Notes under the pieces: model-generated
The model's database searches: none
Seen by the model: the letters and a program-made list of their open reading frames with translations, nothing else
Told to the model about the DNA's origin: nothing
Shown: positions 8,554 to 63,858 of the stretch, one piece after another
Numbering within the stretch: the first letter of the stretch is position 1
Layout of the letters: each line of letters begins with the position of its first letter
Translations under genes and position numbers: made by a program
Source: Dictyostelium discoideum
Taxonomy: Eukaryota
Length of the DNA: 64,000 nucleotides
Assembly (NCBI GenBank): GCA_000004695.1
Contig: CM000152.2
Span: 2,624,001-2,688,000, forward strand
Reading direction: 5' to 3'

Positions 8554-8666
8554 TTCATTTTTAATTTTTTATTTTGTTTTAAATGATTGCCCCCTCTGTT
8601 TCCTCTCGATTTATCATATTTTCATTAAAATCTGACCATATTTAAAAGAGATTCAGTCATTTTAAA

Positions 8667-10105: not shown

Positions 10106-10953
10106 TGGTAGTAATCAAAATCAACCAATGGAATGTCAGAGGTTGGGGCACTGACACCTCCTTCAAAAACAAAACAGACTTTATCAAATCCCAATCCCCC
10201 CCAAACTCATTGGCACTAACCATAGTCAATGAACTCAACGCCGACGCAACACAAGCACACCAGCTATTTCCTGGCTCCATCATTAGCGCAACCAACAGAG
10301 GCAACGGAATAGGAATACTAAACCACAACAACCAAAACATAAAACTCTCACCAATATTCATAATAGAAGGTAGACTAATAATATCAGACATTCTAATAAA
10401 AGATACCACAACGAGAATCTTGGCCATATACGCCCCGGCCCAACCTGATAAAAGAAAAACACTAGCTTCAACACTAAACAAACACTTCAACAACCAATAC
10501 CACAACCTAACGTCTAACCCTAATAAAAACATCGACATCATAGCAGGCGACTTCAACTGTTTAGACTTCAATGACAATCACACATCAAATGATGACCAAG
10601 GCAACTTGACAACACAATCCCCAGATGAGATGGCCACAGTAATCGAAGCCATCAGAATTTCAAATAACCTAATGGATATGGACCAACTAAATAAAAGACC
10701 CACCTTCTCAAGAACGATACACAACACAAACAATAACCTCACAAGAATCTTGGAAAGGAGACTAGACAGAATATACCTTAACAATAGCATAATCAACTAC
10801 AGCCAATTATACTTAAGGAACCTAATCCCCCCAAAAATTAACAACATACCTCTATCAGATCACAACTTCCTATCAACCACCTTCACTCTACCCAACATAC
10901 AGATGAACATGCGCAGATGGAGATTAAAAAATCCTCAATCCTCTCAAGCATAA
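10105..10953 (+). CDS. TRE3 ORF2 N-terminal part: apurinic/apyrimidinic-like endonuclease domain
   Basis: WNVRGW…, IAGDFNCLDFNDNH, LSDHNFL motifs of L1-type EN; overlaps RT ORF by 37 nt. Confidence 0.7.
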   Translation: MVVIKINQWNVRGWGTDTSFKNKTDFIKSQSPPNSLALTIVNELNADATQAHQLFPGSIISATNRGNGIGILNHNNQNIKLSPIFIIEGRLIISDILIKDTTTRILAIYAPAQPDKRKTLASTLNKHFNNQYHNLTSNPNKNIDIIAGDFNCLDFNDNHTSNDDQGNLTTQSPDEMATVIEAIRISNNLMDMDQLNKRPTFSRTIHNTNNNLTRILERRLDRIYLNNSIINYSQLYLRNLIPPKINNIPLSDHNFLSTTFTLPNIQMNMRRWRLKNPQSSQA

Positions 10954-13808
10954 TGCTTAAGAAAATAGACTTCCTACTTAACGATTATTCAAGGGAGTTG
11001 TCATCCAACCATAACTCTATTTCCTTCTCTCAACTCAACAGCTTACTGAACAAAATAAAACAACTATACACAGAATTTCAAAAACAAAACGACTACAACA
11101 ATAAGGCAAACATCAAAAATCTAATCTCCCTACTAGAGACAGAATTTAAAGACCAAGCCTTCGCAACCCTTTCAGCAATAAATGAATCTAAAAGAAGAGA
11201 AGAACAACTTAAACAAGAATTGAACAACTATTGCGAAGAAACCTCACTCAAGTACATCTCCGCGAGAATCAAGAAAAGACATAATGATTTCACCATCAAC
11301 GCAGTAAAAGATGCACAAGGTAGAACAATTAACAAACAGGAATTGATCGAAGAAGAATACGTAAAATATTACTCAAATCTTTATGACTACAAAGAAGATG
11401 ACCCACCATCTCATTATGAAATGTTGGAAAATTGGACAGTGACCAGGGACTCAACATGGGACAACCTTGAAAACGAATTCACATCACAAGAGATCCTAGA
11501 AGTAATAAAACAATTGAACCCACACAAATCTCCAGGCCCAGATGGAATTCCAAACTTATTCTACATAACACACAAAGAAAAACTAGCTCCAATACTGGCC
11601 TCAGCATTCAACGACACTCTAAGAAATCCTCATCTAATTAGCAAAAATTACAAAGAAGGCCTCATTATCACGATACCTAAAAAGGGAGACCCCGAACTAA
11701 TCAAAAACAGAAGACCAATTACACTGGCCAACTGTATATATAAAATCCACTCAAAACTAATAAACAATAGAATAATCCCAATACTAACGAAAGTGATCAA
11801 CCACAATCAAAAAGGTTTCGTACCAGGCAGATTCATTCTAGATAATATCATATCAATGAACGAATTAATCAACTATTGTAATGATAAAAGAATAAACGGA
11901 ATAATTACACTATATGATTTCGAAAAAGCTTTTGACTCGATCTCACACGGTTCAATACTCAGATCACTACAACACATCAACATTCCAACCAATATAATCA
12001 ACCTGATAATGAATCTACTCACCAAATCTGAAGCAAGAATTGAAATTAATGGTAGAACTACTATACCCTTTGAGATCAAAAGAGGAGTTAAACAAGGAGA
12101 TCCACTATCACCCACCCTGTTCGTCCTTGTAATAGAGGCTTTAGCTAGAAAAATTTTACAAGATGACCGAATTACTGGCCTTCCTCTAAACAACAGCAAC
12201 CACAGAGAGAAATTCCAAAGCTTTGCAGACGACTCGGCTTCAATGGTCCCAGACTCTCAACAACTTGAATTAGTACTACAACACTTCAATTCATTTTGCA
12301 AAGCCACTTCCTCAAAACTAAACATCGACAAATCTTCATCAATTCTTATAGGCAACCCAGACAATACCAACCAAAGAATTCCAATATCTACAAATCCAGA
12401 AAGATACTTGGGATACTTCTTCACAGGCAAAGGGATAACAAGAAAAATGCCAGAAATATTAAACACAATAAGATCATCCTTAGTACTATGGAAAACCACT
12501 GACTCAACAATCAAAACCAAAACCAACATCCTCAAAGCATTCGCACTCTCTAAATTAACCTACTATTCATATGTAGAGAACTTTAAGGAAGAGGAATTAA
12601 ACCAAATCAATAAATTAGTCGAATGGTTTTTATCGGCACCAAACAACAAAAATGCTAGTGGATTTCAAGTTATTAATTTAATGAGAACCAAAAGAGCAAG
12701 ATACCCACTAAAAGTAGGAGGCTGGAACATTTGGAATATAGAATTGAGACAACTGGCGCAGAAACTTTGGATCATAAACCAGTTCATCCTAGCACTAGAA
12801 ACCAAACAAACAAACTCATCTCATCACAAAAGCTGGGAATATCAGATCCAAAAAAACAAATTCACATCCAGATACCTAAAAGAAAACTTAGACGAATGGA
12901 ACAAAATAAGAATAAAAAAAGCAATCTTCAACAATAATCTCACATCCATAAAAAACGAAAATGGACAACCACTTTCACTGGCAGAATGGTATACCACAAT
13001 TCAAGACCAAAATCCAACCATCCCTAAAACGGAATTCCAATCATCTCTAAACTTAAGAGGCTACAGCTATAATCAACTCTTCAACAATATACTGAAGATA
13101 AAAGACCCTAAAACAAGAGACACAATGTTTAGATTCCATGCCAGATGCCTTCCAATAAACTACCTTCACAACAAACAATGCCCACTCTGCAAAGAAGATA
13201 TGAGCAAAGACCCATACGGTCACCTGTTCTTCTCATGCAAGAAAACAAAACAATTCATAAAAATAAATAAACTCAAAAATTTCATCTTTATTACCACAGG
13301 CAAAGGTAAAAACTGGCACCATACAAGAATTAGGCAAAATAACAATTTCATTAATAGAATAACTCCAAAATTATCACCGACAGCCAAAAAAGATCAAGAA
13401 GTGAATGCAGATTACGCCAACCACAGATTCCACAAAGAATACTTTGAATGGAACTATAAAGCAATAGACTATGATCTAACCAGATCATTCGCATATAGAA
13501 ACCTAATGGCCCTTATCCTCCACAACATTTGGATTTGGATTTGCAATCAAATATACAGTGAAGATCCTTTAACAGATGAATCACTATCATACAGCTCCCT
13601 TCTAAAGAAATGGCACAAATTGGCCACTCTAGAATACATCAAAAAAGCAAAAGATCTGAAAAACTTATCAGCAAAAGACCATAATAACTTCAAAGATCCT
13701 AAGATCCTTCTCACTTCAACGATCAAGCTAAGAAAAACAACAGCTAATTACTATTGTATTCCAGAATCATCTCTCCCAAATATTATATCTTTTGATCAAT
13801 TCATATGA
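10917..13808 (+). CDS. TRE3 ORF2 reverse-transcriptase part (-1 frame relative to EN ORF)
   Basis: RT motifs PKKGDPE…RPITL, YDFEKAFDSISH, FADDSA; C-terminal Cys/His region. Confidence 0.75.
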   Translation: MEIKKSSILSSIMLKKIDFLLNDYSRELSSNHNSISFSQLNSLLNKIKQLYTEFQKQNDYNNKANIKNLISLLETEFKDQAFATLSAINESKRREEQLKQELNNYCEETSLKYISARIKKRHNDFTINAVKDAQGRTINKQELIEEEYVKYYSNLYDYKEDDPPSHYEMLENWTVTRDSTWDNLENEFTSQEILEVIKQLNPHKSPGPDGIPNLFYITHKEKLAPILASAFNDTLRNPHLISKNYKEGLIITIPKKGDPELIKNRRPITLANCIYKIHSKLINNRIIPILTKVINHNQKGFVPGRFILDNIISMNELINYCNDKRINGIITLYDFEKAFDSISHGSILRSLQHINIPTNIINLIMNLLTKSEARIEINGRTTIPFEIKRGVKQGDPLSPTLFVLVIEALARKILQDDRITGLPLNNSNHREKFQSFADDSASMVPDSQQLELVLQHFNSFCKATSSKLNIDKSSSILIGNPDNTNQRIPISTNPERYLGYFFTGKGITRKMPEILNTIRSSLVLWKTTDSTIKTKTNILKAFALSKLTYYSYVENFKEEELNQINKLVEWFLSAPNNKNASGFQVINLMRTKRARYPLKVGGWNIWNIELRQLAQKLWIINQFILALETKQTNSSHHKSWEYQIQKNKFTSRYLKENLDEWNKIRIKKAIFNNNLTSIKNENGQPLSLAEWYTTIQDQNPTIPKTEFQSSLNLRGYSYNQLFNNILKIKDPKTRDTMFRFHARCLPINYLHNKQCPLCKEDMSKDPYGHLFFSCKKTKQFIKINKLKNFIFITTGKGKNWHHTRIRQNNNFINRITPKLSPTAKKDQEVNADYANHRFHKEYFEWNYKAIDYDLTRSFAYRNLMALILHNIWIWICNQIYSEDPLTDESLSYSSLLKKWHKLATLEYIKKAKDLKNLSAKDHNNFKDPKILLTSTIKLRKTTANYYCIPESSLPNIISFDQFI

Positions 13809-17845: not shown

Positions 17846-21863
<4,018 letters not shown>

Positions 21864-28474: not shown

Positions 28475-28570
28475 AAAATTAAATGTTGTAGGGAATTTTT
28501 TTTGAAATTTCGCTTTCTAAACGGCAGTGAATTTTTACACTAAAATACACTGTTATGCATGGTGTAAAAA
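28475..28570. mobile_element. MITE-like short repeat family 1 (TTGTTGTAGGGAA… / …CAGTGAAWTTT internal palindrome) copy
   Basis: gttgtagggaattttttttgaaatttcg…cagtgaatttttacac…gtgtaaaaattcactaaaa; related copies at 30655, 35709, 40901, 59534 and partial 28815-28880. Confidence 0.5.
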
Positions 28571-28699
28571 TTCACTAAAATTTTTTTATTTTTATAATTA
28601 AATTAAAAAACAATTTATTTAATCAGAACAATAAAAAACCAATTTTATTCAGTTATTTGCTTGTTATTTATTTTTTTATAACAAAAAAATTTAGTTTGC

Positions 28700-28755
<56 letters not shown>

Positions 28756-29493
28756 CAAATTTTTTTTTTCAACATTAAATAAAATTTTTTTTTTTTTTTT
28801 AAAACAAAAAAGTTAATTTGTTGCAGGGAAATTTTTTTTTTTTTTAAAACAAAAAAGTTAATTTGTTGCAGGGAAATTTAAATTTCTTTCCCCTGAACTG
28901 AGAATTTTATTATTTAATTTCACTACACCAACTGAGTGAAAAAAAAAAAATCATTAACCCACCAAAATTCATTGGTATATTACAAAAGTAAATTGATTTA
29001 TGAAAATGAAATGTTTTTTTTTAAAAATTATATTGTAAAGGTTTTATTTAATAAAGTTTATTGTTATTTTTCTAATTTTACCTTTTTTAAAATTTTTTTT
29101 TAAAGTTCAATTTCAGGCTCCCAATCAATCACATTTGAGTTTTGTAACAAGATCTCAAAAATATCTTGTTAATACTAATATTTATTTAATTTTATGAAAT
29201 GTTCTAAACAGAACATTTAAAAATAACTATTAATATTGAATTAATAATTAAATATTAATTATTACTAACTTAATTTATTTTAATAAATTGTTTCATTTTA
29301 TATAATAAACTCCCTAAACCCAATTAAACAATAATTCAAAAATAAATAATAATTTAGAATATAGTTTTGTTTCAACATTTTATTATGACACATACAATTC
29401 AGAAAATAATAATAATTTATTTTATTGTTTTGTTTAAAGGGGTTTTCTCCCGTTGTAATTAAATTTAATTAATTTTAAATTAAATTTAATTTT

Positions 29494-30299: not shown

Positions 30300-30970
30300 C
30301 ACCAGTTGTTACAAGTTTTTTTGTTAAATCCATCTAATAAAATTAAATCAATAACACTATTTGGTATTGAACCTTTTAACAATGGTTTTTTAATTGCACC
30401 AACTAATAGATATAATTGATTGTGGTAGCATACCTTCTTTTAGTTGAACATTGAATCCATCAAGTAATAGCAAATATTGAACCGATGTTGGAATTGAACC
30501 TATTTTAATTGTTTTAACACTTGGTGCAATCGCTACATAAGTAGTACCGTTTGGAACGATAGAATCATCTTTATAAATATAACATTCCTGCAGCTTTATA
30601 AAATAATAATTTAATATTAATAACCTCTATTAAAACAATCTAATATTATTATAATTGTTGTAGTGAAAAATTTCACCAAGTATAACAGGGAAAAAAAAAT
30701 TGTTAAATTTCCCTACAACAATAATTCTATTAAAATAATATAGAATATTTACCAGTAACTCTTTTTGGATCCTTTACAATTGCAATAGAGAGAGAATCGC
30801 TAATTTCAAATATTTCTTTAATTGATTCTTTAACTTGTTCACTATTATTTACAATATTTACATTTTTTAATTGATTCATTAATTCTTTGATTTTATTTTT
30901 CATTTTGATTATCTTTTATTAATAATTGTGATTGATGACAATGTTTTAATATTTCAATATGTTGATAACT
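30300..30970 (-). pseudogene. B-box/FNIP family copy 4: truncated FNIP exon fused to unrelated sequence plus 3' half of exon 2, cut off by (att)n tract
   Basis: …GMLYL*… AGMLYIYKDDSIVPNGTTYVAIAPSVKTIKIGSIPTSVQYLLLLDGFNVQLKEGMLPQSI… then frameshift; exon 2 ends at microsatellite 30975-31055; no exon 1. Confidence 0.6.
30655..30721. mobile_element. MITE-like family 1 copy (67 bp) in intron 2 of array copy 4, flanked by TAA duplication
   Basis: attaTAA|ttgttgtagtgaaaaatttcac…aaatttccctacaacaa|TAAttc; orthologous intron of copies 2,3,5,8 reads attataattc (empty site). Confidence 0.6.
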
Positions 30971-30974
30971 ATTA

Positions 30975-31051
<77 letters not shown>

Positions 31052-31089
31052 TTATTATACTAATAATAATATAGATTTATGAAAAAATG

Positions 31090-31330
31090 AAAAGTTGTAT
31101 GCAAGGAAATAATGGAAAAGAGATATGATAAACTTGTTGAATCAGTTGGCTTTTTAAAACATCCTATATCTAATGTGCTTTATCGTGCAATTGCTGCTGA
31201 ATCTACCTCTATTGTTATTGAAACTCCCACTGATTACCAAATCCAAAAAAAATTACTATTCTGGTAAAAGCAAAAGTCATGTGGTTAAATTATTCGTAAA
31301 CATGATAGCTTTCCAATCTTGGGTAATTAT
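31090..31330 (+). mobile_element. Degenerate DNA-transposon fragment encoding HTH-type transposase N-terminus
   Basis: …MEKRYDKLVESVGFLKHPISNVLYRAIAAESTS… ; inverted, more complete copy at 42290-42560. Confidence 0.4.
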
Positions 31331-31383
31331 TTTAAATAACCAAATCACTACCTCTTACCTTAATACTTTGTTATTAATTTTTA

Positions 31384-31426
<43 letters not shown>

Positions 31427-31595
31427 TATTTGTAACATTATTATTTTATTTTTTTTTGGAAAAAAAATATTCAAAATACGGTAAACATTTTTTAATTAAT
31501 TTACCCTAAGCATACTTGAACCTATTTTTTTATTATCTTGTATCATGGTAATATTTTTAGGTTTAGTTAATAATTTTGATAATTTCCAACATAAA

Positions 31596-31638
<43 letters not shown>

Positions 31639-32013
31639 TTATTATTATAATAATTATATATTATTGGTATTTTTTATTTATAAAAATTAAAATCTGGGAC
31701 AATAAAAAAAAATAAAATAACAAAATTTGTTTAAGGGTCATTTTTATTTTTATTGATTTTATTGATTTTATTTTTATTATTTTTATTGATTTTATTATTT
31801 TTATTTTTGTCGTTTGAGAAAGTTTTTTTTTTTTTTTTTTTTGCTTGGAATCTAATAAAATAAATTGTTGTAATTGAATTAATTTTTTTGTTTGATAAAT
31901 ATTATTTATAAGCAGAAAGTTAAATAATTAAGATTAATATTTAATTAGCTATATAAGATTGGAAAAAAAAAAAAAAAAAAAAAAAATTCGGTCTAATTGA
32001 TTATTATTATTTT

Positions 32014-33370
32014 TTAAAGTTCAATTTTAGGTTCCCAAGTTGACAGATTCCAATCTTTCACTTTTGGGTGAGCGAATTGTTGTTTATATTTTGAAGTTCT
32101 GAGAATAAAATTTTGAAATGGGAAATTTGTTAAAGGAGTATCAAATAGGTATAAATGAACTGTTGATTGTGGTATTTCAGTTATTTTTTGATTAAATCCA
32201 TCTAATAAAGACAAATCAGTAACACCATTTGGTATTGAACCTTTTAATAATGGTTTTTTAATTGCACCAACAAATAGATGTGTAATTGATTGTGGTAGCA
32301 TACCTTCTTTTAGTTGAACATTGAATCCATCAAGTAATACCAAATATTTAACCGATGTTGGAATTGAACCTATTTTAATTGTTTTAACACTTGGTGCAAT
32401 CGCTAAATGAGTAGTACCATTTGGAATGATAGAATCATTTTTATAAATAAAACATTCTTTTCCTCCAGCTTTATATAAATAATAATTTATATTAATAACT
32501 TCTATTAAAACAATCTAATATTATAATTCTATTAAAATACTATAGTATTTTTTTAAAATATTTACCAATAACTCTTTTTGGATCCTTTACATTTGTAATA
32601 GAGAGAGAATTGCTAATTTCAAATATTTCTTTAATTGATTCTTTAACTTGTTCACTATTATTTACAAAATTTACATTTTTATATTGATCCATTAGTTCAT
32701 TGATTTTATTTTCATTTTGATTATCTTTTATTAATAGTCGTGATTGACAACAATGTTTTAATATTTCAATATGTTGATAACTATTATTATCATTAATGAT
32801 TTGATCAATATTTATTTGATTTATTGTATTTTTATATTTATTTGTAATTAAATTAATATTATTTGAATAATCATGTACAATGGTTGAAATGTTTGTATTG
32901 ATATCTTTATTTTCATCATAGAGTGTTACTAATTGTTTGATTTTATCAATTTCGATGATTGGTAATAATTTGGGGAGTTCTTTAAATACTTCTGTGATTG
33001 TATTTACATTTTCAGTGTGTTTATCTTCTAATGATTTAAATAAATTATTTGATTCATTTAATAACTCATTATTGATACCTATTTGTTTATCTAAATTTTG
33101 AAGGTGATTATTTTTAAATTCTTCAAAGATTTCTTTTGAATTCTCTACATCTATACGACCAAATTTATGACCATTATGATCTAAAAGAATACATTCATTA
33201 CATACTACATCCTGTTATAATTGTAATCATACAAAAATGAGTGACAATTACTTTTTATTTAAAGGGTGGAAACATGTTAAAATAATTACCTTACATGTTG
33301 CACAAATCATTTTGATTTTGTGCTCTTTATGTATTGCACATTTGTTATCATATTTACTTATACTATCCAT
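32014..33370 (-). CDS. B-box zinc finger / coiled-coil / FNIP-repeat protein, array copy 5; exons 33290..33370, 32566..33211, 32014..32468
   Basis: Same three-exon structure and junction sequences as copy 3; exon lengths 81/646/455; FNIP exon …LLDGFNQKITEIPQSTVHLYLFDTPLTNFPFQNF…. Confidence 0.8.
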
Positions 33371-34188
33371 CGTGTGAAAGAATTTTTATGAAAAATTAGG
33401 GAAAAAAAAAAAATTTTGAAAAAAAAAAAAATATTATACTATTTTTTTTTTTTTTAAAAATTTAAGTCAAAATTTGAGTTGACAAAATTTAAGTCAATTA
33501 TTTTTTTATTTTTAACATATTTTTCATAAAAAAAAAAAAAATAAAATAAAAACAAGGGATAGGCATTAATTTTTTACTCTTTTTTTAAAAAAAATAAAAT
33601 TAAGTTTTCAATTAGTTTTCAAATAATTTTTATTCACTTCCCACAATCCCATTATTATTATTATATATTTGATACCTTTTTTAAAAGTAAAATATTAAAA
33701 TAATTTTTTTTTTTCAATTTTTTCAATTTTTTTTTTTTTTTTTCATTTTCATTTTAAAGTAGGCAATATAATATTAGTGAATGAATATATAAATGAATAA
33801 ATAAACGAATAAATAAATGAATAAATAAATGAATAAATAGACAAATAAACAAATAAACAATAAATAATAATTAAAAAACATCAAGTAGCTATTTCCAACA
33901 GGTTATCAAGTGGATTTATTCAATTTAGTTTAAATGGTAATTTTCTACTCATGACGGTAGTGATTGTAGAAATGGTGTTCAACAATTATCATTTGAAAAG
34001 GGTTTCTTTTTTAGAGTAGATAGTTCTTTATTTGAATTTTAAACCAAATTTAGTTAAACAATAAAATAAAATTTTTTTTTTTTTTTTCAAAACATATTTA
34101 CAAAGTTTTAGATTTATTAAAACTAGTTTTATTTTATTTATTTATTTTTTTTTTTTTTTTTTTCAATCAAGATTGTAGTTTTATTTTA

Positions 34189-35550
34189 TTATCTTTTTTT
34201 ATTGTTTTTAGTTATTATTATTATTAAGATTTGATTGAGAAGGTAATCTTTTTGGTAAAATTTTAGATGGAGTTGATGGTGCAGTATTTTGATCAATTTT
34301 AGTCCAAATTTCTTTAGCAGAACCACCAGAAACTTTATTAGTTTGAGTAGTGGTGGTTGAAGAAGAAGATGATGATGTAACAATGGTTTAGCAGTTACAA
34401 CACTTTCAAGAGTTGGTAATTTTGGAGATGGTGTAGTTGATAATGTTGAATTATCAATAGTTGTGGCCAATAATGATTCTCTTGATGATTCTTTAACTAA
34501 TGATGGTACAATAATTGATACCATCATTAGTTTAAGCACCACTTATTGTACCATCACTAATAAGTTCATCATCATCCATTGGTATATTAATAATATTAAC
34601 TGGTAATGGTAATGGCGAATCTAATTGTTGTTGTTGTGGTGGTGGTGATGTTGTTGTTTTTGTTGTTGTTGAAGAAGATGAAGAAGATGAAGAAGATGAT
34701 CTTAATTGCAGTGGTTGTAGTTGATTTATTACATTCTTCAATTGGTTCCTCTGGAATTGCATGCTTCAGTTTCTTGTTTAGTTAATTCTTTAGTTGGTTT
34801 AATTTCTTGTAAAATTTGACTAGCCGTTGTTACATTATGTTGATTTAAATCTTGTGATGAAGATAAAGAATTCTCTGCATTAACTTTTGATTGTAAAATA
34901 TCAAATGGTGATAATACTTCAGGTGCTTCATCAATCGATTTTGGATGATTGTTACTATTATGTTGTTGTTGTTGTGATGATGATGATATTGATAATGATG
35001 AAGATGAAGGTGAAGATGAAGCTGATTGATGATTTTCTCTTTCTTTACCAAGGAAATCAGTTGATCAATTCAAAGAAGAATTTAATTTTGGCATCATATT
35101 GCACCGACTGATGGTTTGCGTTGAATAAAACTTGTTGATCTGGTGATGATGGTATACCCCTAATTGTTGGGGATTATCCAACTGATACACTTGTAGTAGT
35201 ATTACCACCAATATTATTACTACTAGTATTTAATGGAGTTGGAATTGGTGTTAATGCACTACTTAATGATGGTGAAGATTGAGCTGATGATATCACATTA
35301 TTATTATTATTTATTTTTTATTATTGATAACAACTGGAGTAACACTTAGAATTGTTTTGAAAGAAACCTTCACTATCTAATTTTGCTGCTTTTGTTCTTT
35401 CATCTTTTGAAATTAATACCCAATTAAGTATTTTAATTTTGGTAATTCATTAATAACAAATAATATAAACTCTTCACATTTCTTTTAAATTAAATTATTT
35501 TCAAATGATAAATATTCTGAAGTTTTAGATTTCTTTAATGTTTGTTTGAT
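34189..35550 (-). pseudogene. Decayed S/T/Q-rich low-complexity gene with multiple frameshifts
   Basis: Collinear ORF pieces 34845-35051, 34532-34762, 34189-34542 in different frames; no intron signals at switches. Confidence 0.4.
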
Positions 35551-35583
35551 AATTTGTTGTCCTAAAATTGAAAATATGAAAAA

Positions 35584-35615
<32 letters not shown>

Positions 35616-35708
35616 ATAATAATAATTAACCATTAAAATAGGAATTAATAATTAAAAACAAAAAAATAATAAACTTTATTTGTTTTTTTGAAAAAAAAAA
35701 AAATTTAA

Positions 35709-35812
35709 GGTCAGTGAAATTAAATAAAAAAATTCAATGCTACTGTAGTGAAATTAAATAGTAAAATTCACTACGCTGGGCAGTGAAATTTTATTGAAAA
35801 TTCCCTACAACA
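35709..35812. mobile_element. MITE-like family 1 copy truncating array copy 6
   Basis: aatttaaggtcagtgaaatt…cactacgctgggcagtgaaatttt…ttccctacaacaa; same outer motif as copy at 59534-59632 (reverse complement). Confidence 0.5.
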
Positions 35813-36235
35813 ATATCTTTATTTTCATCATAGAGTGTTACTAATTGTTTGATTTTATCAATTTCAATGATTTGTAATAATTTGGAGAGTTCTTTAAATA
35901 CTTCTGTGATTGTGTTTACATTTTCAGTATGTTTATCTTCTAATGGTTTAAATAAATTAATTGATTCATTTAATAACTCAAAGATTTCTTTTGAATTCTC
36001 TACACCAATACGATCAAATTTATGGCCATTATGATCTAAAAGAATACATTCTACACATACTACTACCTATTATATTTATAATAATCATACAAAAATGAGT
36101 AAGGATCTTTTATTATTTAAAGAGGTGGATATTTGTTACGATAATTACCTTACATGTTGCACAAATCATTTTAATATCGTGCTCTTTATGTATAGCACAT
36201 TTGTTATCATATTTATTTATATTATTCATTGTGTG
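35813..36235 (-). pseudogene. B-box/FNIP family copy 6: exon 1 plus 5' part of exon 2 with internal deletion, 3' end replaced by MITE
   Basis: ATG ~36231 MNNINKYDNKCAIHKEHDIKMICATCK|…; exon 2 breaks at 35813. Confidence 0.55.
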
Positions 36236-36365
36236 AGAATTATTAAGAAAAAATAATGGAAAAAAAAAAAAAATTTAGAAAAAAAAAGTTTCTGGATTTT
36301 CAATTTAAATCAAAAAAAAAAAAAAACCCAGTTGCGATTTTAAAATTATTTTATTATTTTTTAAT

Positions 36366-36401
<36 letters not shown>

Positions 36402-36726
36402 CTTAAAAATTTAGTTATTTGACTGGAATAATTTATAATCTTAAATTTTATATTGGTTTTTTTTTTTTTATTTTTTTTTTTTTATTTTTTTAAAAACTTA
36501 TTTGTGATAATTTTTTAAAAGATTTTTTTATATAAAATATTGCCTATCTTTATTCCCAAAAAAAAAAAAAATTATAAAAAAATAAATGATAAATTATTAA
36601 ATAATAAAAATAGAAATTTTGAGAAAAAAAAAAAATAAAATAAAAAAAATGGTGAAAATGACCTAATAGATTTATTTAATGATGTTTTGTTATTATTTTA
36701 TAATTCAACTTTTTTTAAAAACTCAC

Positions 36727-37510
36727 CTAAAGTTCAAGTTTAGTCTCCCAAACACCATCCCAATTATTCACATTTGGATAAGTGAGTTGTTGTTTATATT
36801 TTGTGCTTCTGTATATGGTTTTGGAATATGGGAATTTTGTTAAAGGAGTATCAAAAAGTATTAATTGATTAACTGATTGTGGTATTTCAGTTATTTCTTG
36901 ATTAAATCCATCAAATAAAAGTAAATAATAAACACCATTTGGTATTGAACCTTTTAATAATGGTTTTTTAATTGCACCAACCAATAGAGATAATTGACTG
37001 TGGTAGCATACCTTCTGTTAGTTCAACATTGAATCCATCAAGTAATAGCAAAGCTTGAACCGATGTTGGAATTGAACCTGTTTTAATTGTTTTAGTACTT
37101 GGTGCAATCGCTACATGAGTAGTACCATTTAGAACCATAGAATCCTCTTTATAAATAAAATATTCAGCTCCTCCAGCTTAAATAAAAAATTTAATATTAA
37201 TAACCTCCATTAAAACAATCTAATATCATTATAATTCTATTAAAATAAAAATGAATATTTACAAATAACTCTTTTTGGATCCTTTACATTTGTAATATAG
37301 GGAGAATAGGTAATTTCAAATATTTCTTTAATTGATTCTTTAACTTGTTCACAATTATTTACAATATTTACATTTTTATATTGATTCATTAATTCATTGA
37401 TTTTATTTTCATTTTGATTATCTTTTAATAATAATTTTGATTGAGAACAATGTTTTAATATTTCAATATGTTGATCGTTATTATTATTAATGATTTTATC
37501 AATTTTTAAT
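36727..37510 (-). pseudogene. B-box/FNIP family copy 7: FNIP exon with 1-bp frameshift (~37000) and partial exon 2; no exon 1
   Basis: …LPQSIISIGWCN*… instead of …LPQSIKSLLVGAIKK…; exon 2 truncated at 37510 by unrelated AT-rich sequence. Confidence 0.6.
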
Positions 37511-37755
37511 TAATATTAAAATTTTTTTTTTATGGCAAGTTTCTTTTTTATTATCAGTTTGTTATAAATTCTATTATATTATAATAAAATAGTAAAATTT
37601 CTAACTTTTTTTTTCCAGTGGGTGTATATTGTCTCTTGTGAAAAAAATAAAATAAAATAAAATAAAATAAAATAAAATAAAATAAAATAAAATAAAATAA
37701 AATAAAATAAAAAATGATAAACTGGATTTATTTAATGATGTTTTTATGAATTCAC

Positions 37756-39115
37756 TTAAAATTCAATTATAGGCTCCCAACCACCACCATCCCAATTATT
37801 CACATTTGAACAGTGAGTGAGTTTTTGTTTATATTTTGGGTTTCTGTAAATGGTTTTGGAATATGGGAAATTTGTTAAAAGAGTATCGAAAAGTAATAAT
37901 TGATAAACTGATTGTGGTATTTCACTGATTGCTTGATTAAATCCATCTAATAAAAATAAACATAAAACACCATTTGGTATTGAACCTTTTAATAATGGTT
38001 TTTTAATTGCACCAACTAATAGAGATTTAATTGATTGTGGTAGCATACCTTCTGTTAGTTCAACATTGAATCCATCAAGTAATATCAAATATTGAACCGA
38101 TGTTGGAATTGAACCTATTTTAATTGTTTTAACACTTGGTGCAATCGCTACACGAACAGTACCATTTGGAATGATAGAATCATTTTTATAAATAAAATAT
38201 TCTTTTCCTCCAGCTTTATATAAATAATAATTTATATTAATAACCTCTATTAAAACAATCTAATATTATAATTCTATTAAAATACTATAGTATTTTTTTA
38301 AAATATTTACCAGTAACTCTTTTTGGATCCTTTACATTTGTAATAGAGAGAGAATTGCTAATTTCAAATATTTCTTTAATTGATTCTTTAACTTGTTTAC
38401 TATTATTTACAATATTTACATTTTTATATTGATTTATTAATTCTTTGATTTTATTTTCATTTTGATTATCTTTTATTAATAGTCGTGATTGACAACAATG
38501 TTTTAATATTTCAATATGTTGATAACTATTATTATTATTAATGATTTGATCAATATTTATATGATTTATTGTATTTTTATATTTATTTGTAATTAAATTA
38601 ATATTATTTAAATTATCATGTATAATGGTTGAAATGTTTGTATTGATATCTTTATTTTCATCATAGAGTGTTACTAATTGTTTGATTTTATCAATTTCAA
38701 TGATTGGTAATATTTTGGAGAGTTCTTTAAATACTTCTGTGATTGTATTTACATTTTCAGTATGTTTATCTTCTATTGATTTAAATAAATTATTTGATTT
38801 ATTTAATAACTCATTATTGATACCTATTTGTTTATCTAAATTTTGAAGGTGATTATTTTTAAATTCTTCAAAGATTTCTTTTGAATTCTCTACATCTATA
38901 CGACCAAATTTATGACCATTATGATCTAAAAGAATACATTCATTACATACTACATCCTGTTATAATTGTAATCATACAAAAATGAGTGACAATTACTTTT
39001 TATTTAAAGGGTGGAAACATGTTAAAATAATTACCTTACATGTTGCACAAATCATTTTGATTTTGTGCTCTTTATGTATTGCACATTTGTTATCATATTT
39101 ATTTATACTATCCAT
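37756..39115 (-). CDS. B-box zinc finger / coiled-coil / FNIP-repeat protein, array copy 8; exons 39035..39115, 38311..38956, 37756..38213
   Basis: Intact frame across exons (81/646/458 nt); junction sequences as in copy 3. Confidence 0.8.
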
Positions 39116-39712
39116 CGTGTGAAAGAATTTTTATTAAAAATTAGGGAAAAAAAAAAAATTTGAAAAAAAAAAAAAATTTGAAAATCTGATCTTATATTTT
39201 TTTATTTTTTTTTTTTTTTTTAAAAAATTTAAGTCAAAATTTGAGTTGACAAAATTTAAGTCTATTATTTTTTTATTTTTACCATATTTTTCATAAAAAA
39301 AAAAAAATAAAATAAAAACAAAGGATAGGCATTAATTTTTTACTCTTTTTTAAAAAAAAAAAATTTATTTCAAAAAAATAAAATTAAGTTTTCAAATTAT
39401 TTTTATTCACGATTTTTTTTATTTTTTTTTTTTATTCAATTTAATTTTTTATTCACTTCCACAATTCCATTATTATTATATTTGATACCTTTTTTAAAAG
39501 TAAAATAAACTTAAACAATAAATAAAATAAAATAAAATAAAAAGATAATATTAAAATAAACATAATCAAATATTAATTAACATAAAAAATTTTTTTAATG
39601 CACCACCAACTTTGGATTGAAACAAATTTTTTTAATGGAAATCCTAAATAAACTAAATTTAAATAATAAAATTTTTTAAATTTTGAACAGTCACTTTCAT
39701 TTATTTTGAATT

Positions 39713-39745
<33 letters not shown>

Positions 39746-40393
39746 CTTTCATTCATTGTTATTCAATAACAAATAATTAATTGTAAATAATTTACTTTTA
39801 TTTGAGCAAAAATCAAATGTAATTTCAAAATTCAAAATAAAATAAAAAAAAATAAATATATATTTTAATTTGTTTATTTTATTAAAATTTTTAAAAGCAG
39901 ATTTATTACTATTATTATTATTTTCACATGATTTGCGAAGTTTTTTTATTATTATTTTTATTTCCTTATTTTTATTTCCTTTTTTCCATTTCTTTTCTTT
40001 TCTTTCCTTTTCTTTCTTTTTATTTTTTATTTTTTTTATATATTTGACTTGGTTAGAAAGAACTTAAAATAAAAATTTTTAAAAATAAATAAATGCACAA
40101 AAAAAAAAAAAAGAGAAATATTAACACTTTTGTTTTTTGTTTTATAACAACACTATAAAAAAAAAATAAAAAATTAAACAAAATAAAAAAAAAATAAATA
40201 AATAAAAATAAAAATAAAAACAATTTTTAGGTTTGGGTTACCAAGATTTATTTAAATTTAAATTTAAAAAAGGAAAAAAAAAATTTTAGAAATCTGGAAA
40301 AAAAAAAAAAACTGAAACCAAATGGAAGAATTGGGAACCAATTTGCCAAAATCAAGTTTGTAGTGTTGTTATTATTATATAATTCATATTTTT

Positions 40394-41872
40394 TTAAAGT
40401 TCAATTTTAATCTCCCAATTACTAAGATCCCAATTATTCACATTTGAGTGAGAGAGTTGTTGTTTATATTTTGGGCTTCTGTAAATGTATTTGGAAAGTG
40501 GGATATTTTTGAAAGGAGTATTCAAAAGGTAGAAACTGTTAACTGATTGTGGCAATTCACTTATTTCTTGATTAAATCCATCTAATAAAAACAAATTTAA
40601 AACACCATTTGGTATTGAACCTTTTAATAATGGTTTTTTAATTGCACCTACCAATAGAGATTTAATTGATTGTGGTAGCATACCTTCTGTTAGTTCAACA
40701 TTGAATCCATCAAGTAATAGCAAATATTCAACCGATTTTGGAATTGAACCTACTTTAATTGTTTTAACACTTGGTGCAATAGCTACAAATCCACTACCAT
40801 TTGGAACGATAGAATCATCTTTATAAATAAAATACTCAATTCCTACAACTTTATAAAATAATTTAATAACCTCCATTATAACAATCTAATATTATTATAA
40901 TTGTTGTAGTGAAAATGAGCAGGTTTTTTTTTTTTACCAACAGTAGTGAAAAATTTCACCAAGTATAGCAGGGAAAAAAAAAATGTTAAATTTCCCTACA
41001 ACAATAATTCTATTAAAATAATATAGAATATTTACCAGTAACTCTTTTTGGATCCTTTACATTTGTAATAGAGGGAAAATCGCTAATTTCGAATATTTCT
41101 TTAATTGATTCTTTAACTTGTTCACTATTATTTACAATATTTACATTTTTATATTGATTCATTAGTTCATTAATTTTATTTTCATTTTGATTATCTTTTA
41201 TTAGTAGTCGTGATTGATGACAATGTTTTAATATTTCAATATGTTGATAGTTATTATTATTATAATTATTATTATTATTAATATTATTTTTATTATTATT
41301 AATGATTTGATCAATATTTATATGATTTATTGTATTTTTATATTTATTTGTAATTAAATTAATAGTATTTAAATTATCATGTACAATGGTTGAAATGTTT
41401 GTATTGATATCTTTATTTTCATCATAGAGTGTTACTAATTGTTTGATTTTATCAATTTCAATGATTGGTAATAATTTGGAGAGTTCTTTAAATTCTTCTG
41501 TGATTGTATTTACATTTTCAGTGTGTTTATCTTCTAATGATTTAAATAAATTATTTGATTTATTTAATAGCTCATTATTGATACCAATTTGTTTATCTAA
41601 ATTTTGAATGTGATTATTTTTAAATTCTTCAAAGATTTCTTTTGAATTCTCTACATCTATACGATCAAGTTTATGACCATTATGATCTAAAACAATACAT
41701 TCAACACATACTACTACCTATTAAATTTATAATAATCATATCAAAGAATCACTTTTTATTTAAAGGGGTGGATATATGTTACAATAATTACCTTACATTT
41801 TGTACAAATCAATTTAATATCATGCCCTTTATGTATTGCACATTTGTTATCATATTTATTTATACTATCCAT
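40394..41872 (-). CDS. B-box zinc finger / coiled-coil / FNIP-repeat protein, array copy 9; exons 41792..41872, 41036..41717, 40394..40848; MITE in intron 2
   Basis: Intact frame (81/682/455 nt); exon 2 carries in-frame 36-nt poly-N insertion (…IINNNKNNINNNNNYNNNNYQHI…). Confidence 0.75.
40901..41004. mobile_element. MITE-like family 1 copy (104 bp) in intron 2 of array copy 9, same site as copy-4 insertion
   Basis: attaTAA|ttgttgtagtgaaaatgagc…aaatgttaaatttccctacaacaa|TAAttc. Confidence 0.6.
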
Positions 41873-42289
41873 TGTGTGAGAGAATTTTTAAGAAAATTTA
41901 AGAAAAAAAAAAAATTTGGGAAAAAAAAAAAAAAAAAAAAAAAATTAAAATAAAATAAAATCTAATTTTTTGATGTTGGAAATCTTGTTTTGTGAAAAAA
42001 AAAAAAAAGATATTATTTTTTTTTTATTTTATATTTTATTAAACTAATATTAATTTTTTATTTATTTTTGACTATTTAAATTGTTTTTATTTTTTTATTA
42101 TTTAATCATTTGATTGTTTTAATATTTTTTACGAATAATTTGACCATTATTATAGTCTATTTTGGTCTTTTATAGTATATATTTGATCATGATCGGAACC
42201 TGGGAATCCCTCAGGATGTAGTAACATTAATCTGTATGATCTAGTGCATACCTCACAATGAAATTTGACCACATGACTTTGCTTTTACA

Positions 42290-42560
42290 AGAATAGTATT
42301 TTTTTTTGGATTTGGTAATCAGTGGGAGTTTCAATATCAATAGAGGTAGATTCAGCAGCAATTGCACGATAAAGCACATTAGAAATAGGATGTTTTAAAA
42401 AGCCAACTGATTCAACAAGTTTATCATATCTCTTTTCCATTATTTCCTTGCATACAACTCAAAGTGAATGAATGGTTGACTATAGTGATTTTGAAATGTT
42501 TTTGGACTAATACCAAAAGTAACACATATCTCATAAATTGGAAGATATTGTTTCCATTAT
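42290..42560 (-). mobile_element. Degenerate DNA-transposon fragment with HTH (…LPIYEICVTFGISPKTFQNHYSQPF…) followed by frameshifted MEKRYDKLVESVGFLKHPISNVLYRAIAAESTSIDIETPTDYQ…
   Basis: Minus-strand translation; inverted relative to the 31090-31330 copy. Confidence 0.45.
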
Positions 42561-51506: not shown

Positions 51507-51535
51507 TGCGACTTTTGGTCTCCCTGATTAAAAAG

Positions 51536-51607
51536 CTCCCCATTCGGGAATCGAACCCGAGGTACCAGTGTGAAAGACTAGAGTGTTACCGACTACACCA
51601 ATGAGGA
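51536..51607 (-). tRNA. tRNA-Glu (anticodon UUC)
   Basis: TCCTCAT-TG-GTGT-AGTCGGTA-ACAC-T-CTAGT-CTTTCAC-ACTGG-TACC-TCGGG-TTCGATT-CCCGA-ATGGGGA-G; all stems pair. Confidence 0.85.
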
Positions 51608-51719
51608 TTTGGTTTGAATTTTGATTTTTTTATATAATAAAATTTCACGTTTTTTGGAAAAAAACAAACAACAACAACAATCTCTTTTTTTGATTATTTC
51701 ATTTTTCATATAAAAAAGA

Positions 51720-51754
<35 letters not shown>

Positions 51755-51829
51755 GGAACCAAGTTAATTAGAAAATTTCCAGATTTTTAACTTTTTAAAG
51801 AAAAATAAAAAAGATAGAAAGAAAATAAA

Positions 51830-53164
51830 ATGAAAATCACAAACAACACCACAAATATTAAGCAACACAAATGCCTACAAAAAATAAGCGAAATTGTGGA
51901 TAAAACTCAATTAAAAAAAAAACAATTCAAATACGTCATAAACATCAATCACGAACCAGACGATAAAATAAAAAAAGATTTAGAAAAAAGTTTGGACAAA
52001 AAAGATGTTTTAATCAAAAGTAATAATACATTCAAAATTCTCACAGACAGTATTAGTACAGTAATCTATTTTGTAAATATGTTTGATGCAGAATTAAAAG
52101 GACAATTTATAACCACTATAAGACCAAAAAATATGTATACAGATTTTGATTGGTATAAATCACTCACAGAAATAGAATGGGTAATAGAAAATGAAGGATG
52201 TAAACTAATTAAATCAGAAATTAAAGGCGAAACTCTAATTATCAAAACAGTGAAAAGAGTCGTAGAAGAATTTGACACTATCATTGAACTAGACAATCTA
52301 ACATTAATTGGACACTCCAACAAAGGATGGAGAGATCAAACCTCATTACCAGAAAATCAAGAAGAAAACAAAAATAAAAAACAATCAGATGAACAACAAC
52401 CACAATCTACATCAGAACAAATACCAAAACAAGGAAAAAGAACAATCATTATCCCACCAATCACATCCTCATCTAATGATAAAACATTTATGGCCCTAGA
52501 TGATACAGCTCAAAAGGTAATAGAAGCATCACTAGAAAACGTAGATGAACTAACAAGAATAGAGAATGAGATCAATACACAATCGATAAACAATCAAGAA
52601 ATTAAAACAAAATCAGAAAAACCTATCGAACCACCATCTCCATACAATACACCAATAAAACAACACGGCGAAACAAAGGGACTAACAACGGAAGAAAAAC
52701 TTAGAGAGGCAAATGATATCTTCGACTTCACCAGCCCAAACACTGATGCAATAAGAAAAATAGAATTCCCACTTTCAATCCCTTCAAATCAATGGTTCTT
52801 CTCCTCTCCAATAAAACATATCATGAGTTTCAGCCCAACCTATGGTACACCATCGAAAATTATCGATTCACCAAGTAAATTGTTAAACACACCAAAAAAG
52901 AAACAACAAGACAAAACAAACAAGACCAACAAAACACCAGTCAAACCAAAATTGGGTGAATATGGACAAAAAAGCATAAAAACAAAAATGGATGAAGATA
53001 TAGACAACTTCAACAAGGAAATTCTAAAACAAATCAATAAATCAAAAAACCCCACAAACACACAAGACCAACAACACAACGAACAAAGTAAAGATCAGTT
53101 AGAAGACAAAATAAACCAGAAACTTCAAAAGGTAGATAAAAATCTACCCCAAATAAAACTATAA
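51830..53164 (+). CDS. TRE5-A ORF1 protein
   Basis: 444-aa ORF; N-terminal 60 aa repeated in 3' B-module and in remnant at 2087-2330. Confidence 0.7.
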   Translation: MKITNNTTNIKQHKCLQKISEIVDKTQLKKKQFKYVININHEPDDKIKKDLEKSLDKKDVLIKSNNTFKILTDSISTVIYFVNMFDAELKGQFITTIRPKNMYTDFDWYKSLTEIEWVIENEGCKLIKSEIKGETLIIKTVKRVVEEFDTIIELDNLTLIGHSNKGWRDQTSLPENQEENKNKKQSDEQQPQSTSEQIPKQGKRTIIIPPITSSSNDKTFMALDDTAQKVIEASLENVDELTRIENEINTQSINNQEIKTKSEKPIEPPSPYNTPIKQHGETKGLTTEEKLREANDIFDFTSPNTDAIRKIEFPLSIPSNQWFFSSPIKHIMSFSPTYGTPSKIIDSPSKLLNTPKKKQQDKTNKTNKTPVKPKLGEYGQKSIKTKMDEDIDNFNKEILKQINKSKNPTNTQDQQHNEQSKDQLEDKINQKLQKVDKNLPQIKL

Positions 53165-53418
53165 AGAAAAACACAATAAGAATAGGTGTTTGGAACGTCC
53201 AAGGATCCAACACCATCCAATCTGCCAGCATAATAAACACCGTTTTAGACAACAACAAGCTGGACGCAGCACTTCTAACTGAAACAAATATAAAAACAAA
53301 TAAAATTTACTCAATAAATCAACAATATAAAAACAAAATAACACACCACGCACCAATTGATAAAACAGGACAAGGGGTGTCACAAATCATCATCAACACC
53401 CGCAATAGAACTTCCTAA
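53161..53418 (+). pseudogene. TRE5-A ORF2 5' fragment (AP-endonuclease N-terminus), truncated by internal deletion
   Basis: IGVWNVQGSNTIQSASIINTVLDNNKLDAALLTETNIK… in -1 frame relative to ORF1, followed by poly(A) 53463-53518. Confidence 0.55.
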
Positions 53419-53460
53419 ACATCTCAAAAAATACAATAATTCACTCAGTACTTTCTATAA

Positions 53461-53520
<60 letters not shown>

Positions 53521-54077
53521 CAAGTTAATCAGAAAAATAAAAAAGATAGAAAGAAAATAAAAGGAAAATCACAAACAACACCACAAATATTAAGCAACAC
53601 AAATGCCTACAAAAAATAAGCGAAATTGTGGATAAAACTCAATTAAAAAAAAAACAATTCAAATACGTCATAAACATCAATCACGAACCAGACGATAAAA
53701 TAAAAAAAGATTTAGAAAAAAGTTTGGACAAAAAAGATGTTTTAATCAAAAAGACCCTGTAAAAAAAAAAAAAAAAATAAAATGAGATCTAGCATCTCAA
53801 GGAGAAGCAAATAATAATTGCGTTATCCAATTCAAAAAAAAAAAAATTTCACGTTTTTTCGAATTAAATAAATTATAAAATTTCAAAATTTTTTCCAGAT
53901 TTTTTAATATTCAATTTTTCCCCATTGGAATCATTAAAAATAATGAAAAATATGTATTATTAAACGAAAATGTAACATTTTAAATGTATATTTGTTTAAA
54001 TAAAAAAATTATTTCGGTTCAAAAAAAAAAAAAAAAATTAAAAATAAAAAAAAAAAAAAAAGTCGTTCGTTTTTTAA

Positions 54078-57662: not shown

Positions 57663-58741
57663 ATGAAATCTTCACCATCAACGACATCGCCATCGGCTTC
57701 AAATCCACAATTTAAACTCAAAAGTATGTTTTTATATATATATATATATGCTTAAATCAAAAATTAAAGTAACGCAATAACAATATTAATTTTTTTATTT
57801 TTTTTATTTTTTTTATTTTTTTTTATTTTCAAAATATAGAACCAAATAAATTTTCAACTACTACAGCAAAATCTATTGTGCCATTAAATCTTGGTAGTGA
57901 GAAAAGTGAAAAGGGTTTAGTAAGTAATAATGGAATTTTTTCAAATACAATAAACACATCAGGACAACCAACCATACCATTGGTTTCTTCTAATAGTGTT
58001 TGGGGTGGAGTAAAACCAGCCACTCCCGTTATTACAACTACACCAACACCATCATCAACAACAACAGCAACAACAACACCAGTAACACCATCATCACCTC
58101 AACAAACTACATCAACAACAAATACAACATCATCAAACACTAATACAAATACAGGAGCACCACAAACAGTTGCAAGTTTAATCCAATCAACTCTTTTACA
58201 TCCATCACTTATAAATTCTTCTACATCATCACCACTTGGTGGCTCAACTTCATCTTCAACATCATCAATTTCATCTTCAACAGAAAATTTAGCTGCTTCA
58301 TCAACTTCACCTCCACCACCACAACCATCATCATCATCACAACCATCATCATCAACTACTACAAACCCAATAAATAATGCATCAACAACTGCGCAATCTC
58401 AATCAAATACTGTAGATACACAACAAACATCAAACACATCAAATTTAGTTATACCACCACAACCAACCACCACCACAACAACAACAACAGCGACCCCATC
58501 AACAACTAATCCAACTACAACAAATGATTCCTATATTTCACCATCTGTCGCAAAAAAGAAAGATATTATTCAACCACCATCACCTCCAACCTTTTCAACA
58601 ATTAATAAAAATACCAATTATCCTGCACTTGGTAAAAAAGATGAATTAAATAAACCAAAAACAATTGCCATGGAATATACATCAGCAGTAACAACAGCAA
58701 CAGCATCATCAACATCAATACATCTAACTCAACCACAATGA
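57663..58741 (+). CDS. S/T/P-rich low-complexity protein; exons 57663..57723, 57840..58741
   Basis: MKSSPSTTSPSASNPQFKLK|KPNKFSTTTAKSIVPLNLGSEKSEK…; GTATGT donor at 57724, acceptor atatAG 57839, phase 1. Confidence 0.55.
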
Positions 58742-58766: not shown

Positions 58767-58866
58767 NNNNNNNNNNNNNNNNNNNNNNNNNNNNNNNNNN
58801 NNNNNNNNNNNNNNNNNNNNNNNNNNNNNNNNNNNNNNNNNNNNNNNNNNNNNNNNNNNNNNNNNN
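58767..58866. other. Assembly gap (100 N)
   Basis: Run of N. Confidence 1.
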
Positions 58867-59540
58867 TAGATAACAAACCAAAACCATCAATTTCACTATT
58901 TGCAAATAAAACAAGGAAAGGAAGAGAGAATAGATCAATATTATATTACCTTTTAATATCAATTAAAAATCAAATATCAAATGATGATTTTTTAATTATG
59001 GAACAATTAGTAACTATATGTTTTAAATTATATAGTGACTCTTTTGATGAAAATGATTTAAATTCACTTCAAGTATTAATTGAATCATTTAATGCAAAAG
59101 TAAATTTAATTACTGAAACAGAAATAATGAATTTCCACTTGTTGTTACATTATCCAATCTATATAAAAAATTGGGGTGCACCAAAATACACTTCAGCTGA
59201 AACTTTTGAAGCACAATTATCAAGAATTAAAAATTATTTAAATAATAATACAAATAATAGGGATGAACAATATGAAAGGGTTACCAAATTAAACATGGTG
59301 AAATTTTTTAATTCAGTAGATAAATTAAAAAGTATTGAGCCTGAAAGTACAGCATTAATTATTGGTAACAAAATAAAAAATCCAGGTAATATAGATAATA
59401 TAAAAATTAAATTAGATTCATTATTTCAAAATTATAAAAATATAACTTTTCACTCATCAATTAAAAATAATAAAGAAATATACAATATTGGTGATGCAGT
59501 TGAAGTTGCATCAGATAATGAACTTTCAGGTATGTTGTAG
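58867..59540 (+). CDS. Hypothetical protein, 5'-partial (ORF open from gap edge), ends at MITE-like insertion
   Basis: Frame open from 58867 through Met 58998 to stop 59538-59540; stop lies 5 nt into repeat copy starting 59534. Confidence 0.45.
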
Positions 59541-59632
59541 GGAATTTTCCATAAAATTTCACTACAGTAGCGTAGTGAATTTTATTATTTAATTTCACTA
59601 CAGTAGCGTAGTGAAAAAAAAAAATCACTGAC
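59534..59632. mobile_element. MITE-like family 1 copy (gttgtagggaatttt…cactacagtagcgtagtgaa ×2 …aaatcactgacc)
   Basis: Reverse complement aligns with 35709-35812; possibly terminal repeat region of adjacent Tdd-4-like transposon. Confidence 0.5.
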
Positions 59633-59735
59633 CTTAAATTTTTTTTTTTTTCAAAAAACAAATAAAGTTTATTAAATTGAAATTTTATTTTTTGTTTTAA
59701 TTATTATTTTATTTATTTTTATTATAATTATTGTT

Positions 59736-59774
<39 letters not shown>

Positions 59775-59914
59775 CAATTTTTTTTTTTAAATTTTTTTCA
59801 TTTTTTATTTGTTTATTAAATTGTATTTTTATTTTTTGTTTTAATTATTATTTTATTTATTATTATTGTTAATTTTTTTTTTTTTTCAATTTTTTTTTTT
59901 TTAATTTATTTTTA

Positions 59915-60310
59915 TTAATTTATTTTTATTAACTCCCTGAGTTGTTCAATTGCTTGATTTACCATATCACTGTAAACACTGCACACAATTGAATTTTTTC
60001 TAGCTTTGTTACCTCTGGTGCATTTGATGTTTTTGCATTTTCCTTTGTATACAAAAAAGTCCAAATATAATTCGTTTTCTATTACAGTTTTTACACAATG
60101 TTGGTGAAATTGTTTTGATTTTAATTCTAATGCTTCTAACATCATATTTGAATTTTTAACGATTAAAGCATCACCACTATTTACATATAGTACTTTGGCT
60201 GCTTTTTCGAGGAATTTAGTCAAATTTTCCTCTGAATCTAACTATTCTTCATTGCCATATTCAATGGCTAAATTTCTTAAGAGTTTTATCGAATCTATTA
60301 ATTCTTCGAT
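59915..60310 (-). pseudogene. Transposon-associated small ORF (MIEELIDSIKLLRNLAIEYGNEE*LDSEENLTKFLEKAAK…CKNIKCTRGNKARKNSIVC…) with in-frame TAG
   Basis: Minus ORF 59915-60223 extends upstream in frame through a stop at ~60245. Confidence 0.3.
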
Positions 60311-60549
60311 CATTCTTTTTTTTTGAAATTTTTTTTTATTTTGTTTTTTCAATTTTTTTTTTTTATTTTGTTTTTTCAATTTTTTTTAAGTTTTATTTTT
60401 TTTTATTTTTTTTTATTTTTTTTAACAAATGTAATTTTTTTTTATTTTTTTCAATTTTTTTTTTTTTTTAATTTTTAATTTTTTTTTTTTTTTTTAATTT
60501 TTTGTGTTGATTTGTGTTTTTTTTGTTTTTTTGATTTGGCCACTTGTTT

Positions 60550-63808: not shown

Positions 63809-63823
63809 TTTGGGAAAATGAAA

Positions 63824-63858
<35 letters not shown>

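Follow-up and report, generated by a model that had tools for sequence, protein, structure and literature searches.

The 64,000-bp stretch of Dictyostelium discoideum AX4 analysed in this work (contig CM000152.2, positions 2,624,001 to 2,688,000, hereafter the window) has about 20% G+C and carries on its minus strand, at 25–49 kb, a tandem array of B-box/FNIP-repeat genes (Pfam FNIP). Two copies in this array contain, at the same intron position, a small non-coding element of 65–102 bp that resembles a miniature inverted-repeat transposable element (MITE) and is very probably a miniature non-autonomous derivative of the Tdd family (Ginger2/Tdd superfamily) with a 5-bp target duplication, i.e., an ordinary transposon relic. 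An earlier note, made from the sequence of the window, had already proposed a MITE-like, non-autonomous DNA transposon, and this is supported; its further proposals on the superfamily, the duplication length and the activity of the element have to be revised, as shown below.

The long form (102 bp, 40902–41003, minus strand, with ends TGTTGTAGTGAA…TTCCCTACAACA) lies in intron 2 of DDB_G0279877, and the short form (65 bp, 30656–30720, minus strand) inside a ~750-bp internal fragment of an FNIP paralog (30314–31059). The segment itself had thus been correctly recognised, but as one of 67 or 104 bp between TAA repeats; its lengths are 65 and 102 bp and the duplication is ATAAT, present on the left (40897–40901) and right (41004–41008) of the long form and on both sides of the short one (30651–30655 and 30721–30725). 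The long form is an imperfect palindrome over its full length and folds into a single long hairpin (DNA minimum free energy -14.6 kcal/mol, z -2.6), of which the 65-bp form lacks one arm. Sequence reading and alignment place the difference in a 37-bp segment unique to the long form (40916–40952), which is bordered by the 10-bp direct repeats GTAGTGAAAA (40906–40915 and 40943–40952) and whose removal gives the 65-bp form. Besides this indel, the two forms differ by two substitutions (96.7% identity over 61 nt). The 33-nt terminus of the element is TGTTGTAGGGAAATTTAACATTTTTTTTTTCCC. The motif TTGTTGTAGTGAAAAATTTCAC occurs a single time in the window, at 30655, while TTGTTGTAGGGAA-like ends were observed 16 times against 2.4 expected. 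An Rfam scan of the element gave a sub-threshold miRNA-like match alone (18 bits, with a gathering score of 117), and today it appears to be an inert intronic relic.

Filled and empty sites were compared among the paralogs. The protein of DDB_G0279877 (AX4, P0039) maps to the window at 100% identity (residues 28–254 at 41717–41037 and 255–405 at 40849–40397), which delimits an intron 2 of 187 bp (40850–41036, minus strand) and confirms the intronic location of the 102-bp copy; if the element and one copy of the duplication are subtracted, 80 bp remain. In a MAFFT alignment of the introns from 10 FNIP/B-box paralogs of the window, complemented by sequence reading, the extra segment is confined to the copies at 30.7 kb (c30, 65 bp) and 40.9 kb (c40, 102 bp). 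Seven other paralogs show the uninterrupted sequence ...aatctaatatt(att)ATAATtctatt..., and in the one at 25.4 kb a deletion spans the site, so that the contrast described in the earlier note stands, with two filled and seven empty introns. The empty site is also found in paralogs of D. cf. discoideum (L004) and of strain GCA_054859385.1 (L006/L007), bringing the empty paralogous sites to at least 10 in three genomes, each with exactly one ATAAT and without any footprint. Both filled copies recur in the independent assembly GCA_054883475.1 (L008, 99.8% identical over 20.5 kb) and are therefore not assembly artefacts. A protein search with the FNIP exon retrieved paralogs only, with identities of 71% or less.

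The two filled sites are most simply read as one old insertion that was later copied when the gene was duplicated or converted, because c30 and c40 share the site, the orientation and the duplication. They also share the intron haplotype adjacent to the element (aaaataatatagaatattt), and in its left flank c40 resembles c30 most (91.6%, with the other copies reaching 88% or less). That an active MITE family inserted twice, independently, at one hot-spot site, which would imply recent activity, is very unlikely. Such a history would agree with the preference of Ginger2 elements for AT-rich targets (PMC2836005) and with the right flanks, where c30 and c40 are not unambiguous sisters and c27 and c38 are at least as close to c30 as c40 is, an observation that counts against a single event. 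However, the identical position, orientation and duplication, the common haplotype and the left flank of c40 all speak for one event, and the size difference is accounted for by a deletion between direct repeats. Moreover, a search of about 270 kb of Dictyostelium DNA gave no further copy of this element, and what had been taken for a small non-autonomous family in the window comes down to one insertion present in two paralogs. The ±200-bp flanks of c30 and c40 differ by about 6–8%, which together with the two substitutions and the 37-bp indel indicates that the insertion predates the gene duplication or conversion and leaves the proposed recent activity unsupported.

Returning to the single insertion, the 37-bp difference would fit a deletion between the 10-bp direct repeats, and the long form is probably ancestral, since the 37 bp are bordered by these repeats and the full hairpin of the 102-bp form has lost one arm in the 65-bp form. 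The orthologous array of strain GCA_054859385.1 (~5 copies) contains no element, which is consistent with an insertion that arose in the expanded AX4-type array, without giving a date. We infer the following course of events, including mobilisation in trans, their order and the direction of the 37-bp change: a Tdd-type transposase acting in trans would have recognised the TGTTGTAGGGAA termini and cut at the TG…CA ends; the ~102-bp palindromic element would have integrated through a 5-bp staggered cut at ATAAT in intron 2 of one FNIP/B-box paralog; the occupied intron would then have reached a second copy of the tandem array, through duplication of a segment or gene conversion, and there slippage between the two 10-bp direct repeats may have removed 37 bp.

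The insertion site (ATTATTATAATTGTTGTAG…CTACAACAATAATTCT) can be parsed in two ways, either as TAA+TTGTTG…CAACAA+TAA, as in the earlier note, or as ATAAT+TGTTG…CAACA+ATAAT. We compared 14 aligned ends, 12 of them from the window and from loci reached via transposase homologs, plus the two ends of the MITE. The pattern TGTTG-AG-GAA is invariant across all of them, while the base at -1 reads A,T,T,T,A,C,T,T,G,T in the independent ends (A, A, C or G in 4 of 10) and the 3-nt flanks have no TAA/TTA pattern. An invariant TGTTG preceded by a variable base fixes the terminus as TGTTG…CAACA and the duplication as 5-bp ATAAT rather than TAA; the apparent 3-bp duplication is explained by a flank that by chance supplies T and A beside the element. 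These termini follow the TGTNR…YNACA (TG…CA) form of Ginger2/Tdd, in line with the TGTNR rule described for Ginger elements (PMC2836005), and the same source gives 5-bp target duplications for TDD-4 and TDD-5 (citing Wells 1999 and Glöckner 2001).

A transposase-bearing relative with the same termini was found at L011:1733–10193, in D. discoideum strain GCA_054859385.1. It starts with TGTTGTAGGGAAATTTAACA(T)12CCC and ends with …TTCGCTACAACA, its left end corresponding to the GGGAA end of the MITE (20 identical nt, then the same T-run and CCC, ~33 nt in all; E about 1e-9 for the match of M104 to L011), while the other end of the small element has just the 12-nt terminus in common with it. This partner carries H2C2 and rve genes; between them stands a block of ~3.7 kb with unrelated genes on the minus strand, probably inserted there. 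TCATT borders the partner at either end, and its flanks, when joined via a single TCATT, match uninterrupted sequence in two DIRS-like paralogous copies (L011:~16589, 96%, and L005:~8988, 93%). Duplications of the 4–5 bp expected for Ginger2/Tdd are thus seen at both MITE copies (ATAAT) and at this larger element. As a T follows CAACA at its right end, parsing with 3 bp and TTGTTG is impossible there and only the 5-bp duplication fits. A longer partner of the kind that the earlier note suggested looking for was found in another strain; no partner in the AX4 genome itself was found in the Dictyostelium DNA searched (~270 kb). The shared termini, the 5-bp duplication of the L011 element and the literature on TDD-4 and TDD-5 together assign the small element to Tdd/Ginger2 and lead us to reject PIF/Harbinger.

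A Tourist-like MITE of PIF/Harbinger, with termini TTGTTG…CAACAA and a 3-bp TAA duplication, is accordingly extremely unlikely. The flanks at this one site can be read in that way, and a gene with a Harbinger-type transposase domain (PF13359, DDE_Tnp_4), the only one of this type encountered, is present in D. cf. discoideum at L004:18954–20258, beside an FNIP array and retroelements. Nevertheless, the required TTGTTG terminus is missing from the four ends mentioned above, the elements that do bear the termini of the small element encode H2C2/rve proteins and not DDE_Tnp_4, and no TGTTGTAG-type termini were found near the L004 gene. Just as unlikely is it that the element is no transposon and that the intron gained a palindrome by local insertion or duplication, the empty sites being precise deletions: the near-palindrome is rich in A/T runs, a slippage-prone type of sequence, but its 12–33-nt termini match Tdd-type ends at unrelated loci and in other strains, the 5-bp duplication is exact and the many empty sites hold one ATAAT each with no footprint.

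Some points weigh against the derivation from Tdd elements or the 5-bp duplication. The best partner is a disrupted element, and the strain that carries it is ~9% diverged. Outside ~33 nt of one end and the 12-nt terminus of the opposite end, the small element shows no clear derivation from any sequenced Tdd body. Only one independent insertion is available, so the duplication length rests on a single site, where the 3-bp reading is formally possible if that site is taken in isolation. Finally, a complete 2780-bp Tdd element of a second subtype (B) at L012:6993–9772 has no target duplication, so that a clean duplication is not universal in the family.

The window contains several ends of larger Tdd-type elements, and those at 28475, 35709 and 59534, previously taken for related copies of the small element, belong here, as two isolated fragments and the end of one Tdd-4-like transposon. 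The latter (59533–64000, minus strand, continuing past the window end) has a terminal repeat starting TGTTGTAGGGAATTTTCC… and transposase exons at 60125–62741 and 63500–63655 (minus strand) with SPXX repeats, an rve core and H2C2. The matches of the exons at 60125–62741 to rve and rve_3 are weak, but among their Dictyostelium homologs P0004, P0007 and P0009 exceed the Integrase_H2C2 Pfam cut-off (36.9 bits vs 25.5) and P0004 also that of rve (33.5 vs 32.6); the transposase fragment of the window is 97% identical to DDB_G0282919. A ~146-bp sequence that follows the transposase gene on its 3' side in the window precedes it on the 5' side in L002, and is therefore a terminal inverted repeat. The gene is interrupted at 62750–63490 by a repeat block rich in 'ttaaag/tttaaa' with tRNA-like fragments; protein P0009, from another locus (L002), also reads through this block, which so belongs to this Tdd-4-like variant.

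The first isolated fragment, of Tdd-4-like (A) type (35579–35812, minus strand), is 82% identical to 59533–59771 and meets, precisely at 35813, exon 2 of FNIP copy 6. Next to it, between FNIP copy 5 and this terminal repeat, the minus strand bears ~2 kb (33600–35578) that look coding but have broken frames and a higher GC content, and that showed no relationship to the Tdd bodies compared. The second (28484–28769, plus strand) is of the B type and matches both ~290-bp terminal repeats of the L012 element. The flanks of that element are mutually inverted for 59 bp past its TGTTG termini (L012:6934–9831), giving 175-nt arms that are 97% complementary. A diverged end of a third type (TGTTGCAGGGAAATTT…, 28864–29012, plus strand) shows 70% identity with the A-type end across 150 nt and has a partial tandem duplicate at 28819–28835; the segment 28864–28930, considered as a 67-bp MITE, was rejected, being part of this diverged terminal repeat. 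Judged by sequence comparison, the ends at 28484, 35812 and 59533 are the terminal repeats of Tdd-type elements that are larger and fall into at least three subtypes, and none is a copy of the small element. Scanning L001–L005 and L013 for end pairs gave single truncated ends only. A candidate from a pair scan that took target duplications into account (L001:6622–6739) was low-complexity coding sequence and a chance match, and a metagenome scan for paired termini returned two matches, both unrelated bacterial hairpins. The literature search for the terminal motif and for Dictyostelium MITEs gave nothing relevant, the original Tdd papers being outside the literature covered.

FNIP copies and fragments of the array are located at ~25.2, 26.7, 27.3, 30.4, 32.3, 35.9, 37.0, 38.0, 40.7, 44.4, 46.6 and 48.7 kb, all on the minus strand. 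The array (25000–49700) has ~10 copies or fragments in AX4 and ~5 in GCA_054859385.1 (L006/L007), with orthologous DNA ~91% identical, which indicates rapid copy-number change; its mosaic identities suggest that gene conversion may also have acted. Adjoining the 30.7-kb gene fragment, positions 31093–31291 are an inverted 97% copy of 42262–42459, the region upstream of DDB_G0279877, and this arrangement indicates that the fragment was probably born of a complex rearrangement. Other features of the window include two runs of 100 N (21738–21837 and 58768–58867), between which a 36.9-kb block (21838–58767) is inverted with respect to GCA_054859385.1. A 1729-aa gene of that strain corresponds to window positions 57878–58724 (plus strand) and 21863–17846 (minus strand), both gaps falling in its CAA/CCA repeat, which suggests that the inversion is either real or due to a scaffold piece placed in the wrong orientation. 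A 2.2-kb segment (51660–53839; open reading frame 51830–53164, no Pfam match) adjoins a tRNA-Glu gene (51535–51607), is missing from the otherwise 99.8% identical GCA_054883475.1 and looks like a polymorphic tRNA-associated insertion. Lastly, a retrotransposon without long terminal repeats (8852–13808; RVT_1, E 8e-34) lies ~300 bp downstream of tRNA-Cys (8481–8554), the tRNA-targeted TRE pattern typical of Dictyostelium.

The chief value of these results is a correction of annotation, and no new mechanism is revealed. Gene introns of Dictyostelium hold miniature derivatives left by Tdd/Ginger2 elements, the family terminus is fixed as TGTTG…CAACA, and a clean filled/empty pair confirms the 5-bp duplication. 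The insertion is also a shared marker that ties together two copies of the fast-expanding FNIP/B-box array.

Among known systems, the small element is like the Tourist MITEs of PIF/Harbinger in being small and intronic, in having terminal inverted repeats and in its AT-rich target, but differs from them in its 5-bp rather than 3-bp TWA duplication and in termini and a transposase that are integrase-like and not of the DDE_Tnp_4 type. Non-autonomous Dictyostelium DNA elements, DDT-S and thug-S/T, were reportedly described by Glöckner 2001. Compared by description only, these are similar to our element as short or non-coding derivatives of DNA transposons in the same genome (PMC5633606), and thug-S hairpins yield small RNAs (PMC4894637, PMC6161686). 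However, thug-S is described with an intron, which implies a larger element and sets it apart. It is conceivable, but unlikely, that hairpin MITEs of ~100 bp, scattered in introns and descended from a third or fourth Tdd subtype, form an unannotated family of which our element is the first to be recognised, and that their foldback transcripts could feed the DrnB/RbdB small-RNA pathway as those of thug-S do; if true, the Ginger2/Tdd superfamily would come to include true MITEs in Amoebozoa. The closest likeness is to Tdd-4 and Tdd-5, although Tdd-4 is ~3.8 kb long and the small element has 65–102 bp of non-coding sequence. Its terminal 12 nt are identical to the end of the Tdd-4-like element of the window, its ends part from the A (Tdd-4-like) and B terminal repeats of the window past the first 12–16 nt, and its best match is a third subtype (D), represented here by the L011 element from another strain. 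With Tdd-4 and Tdd-5 it shares the TG…CA (TGTNR) termini and the 5-bp target duplication (PMC2836005), as well as the subterminal TTTCAC/GTAGTGAAA motifs and a partner transposase with H2C2 and rve domains and SPXX repeats.

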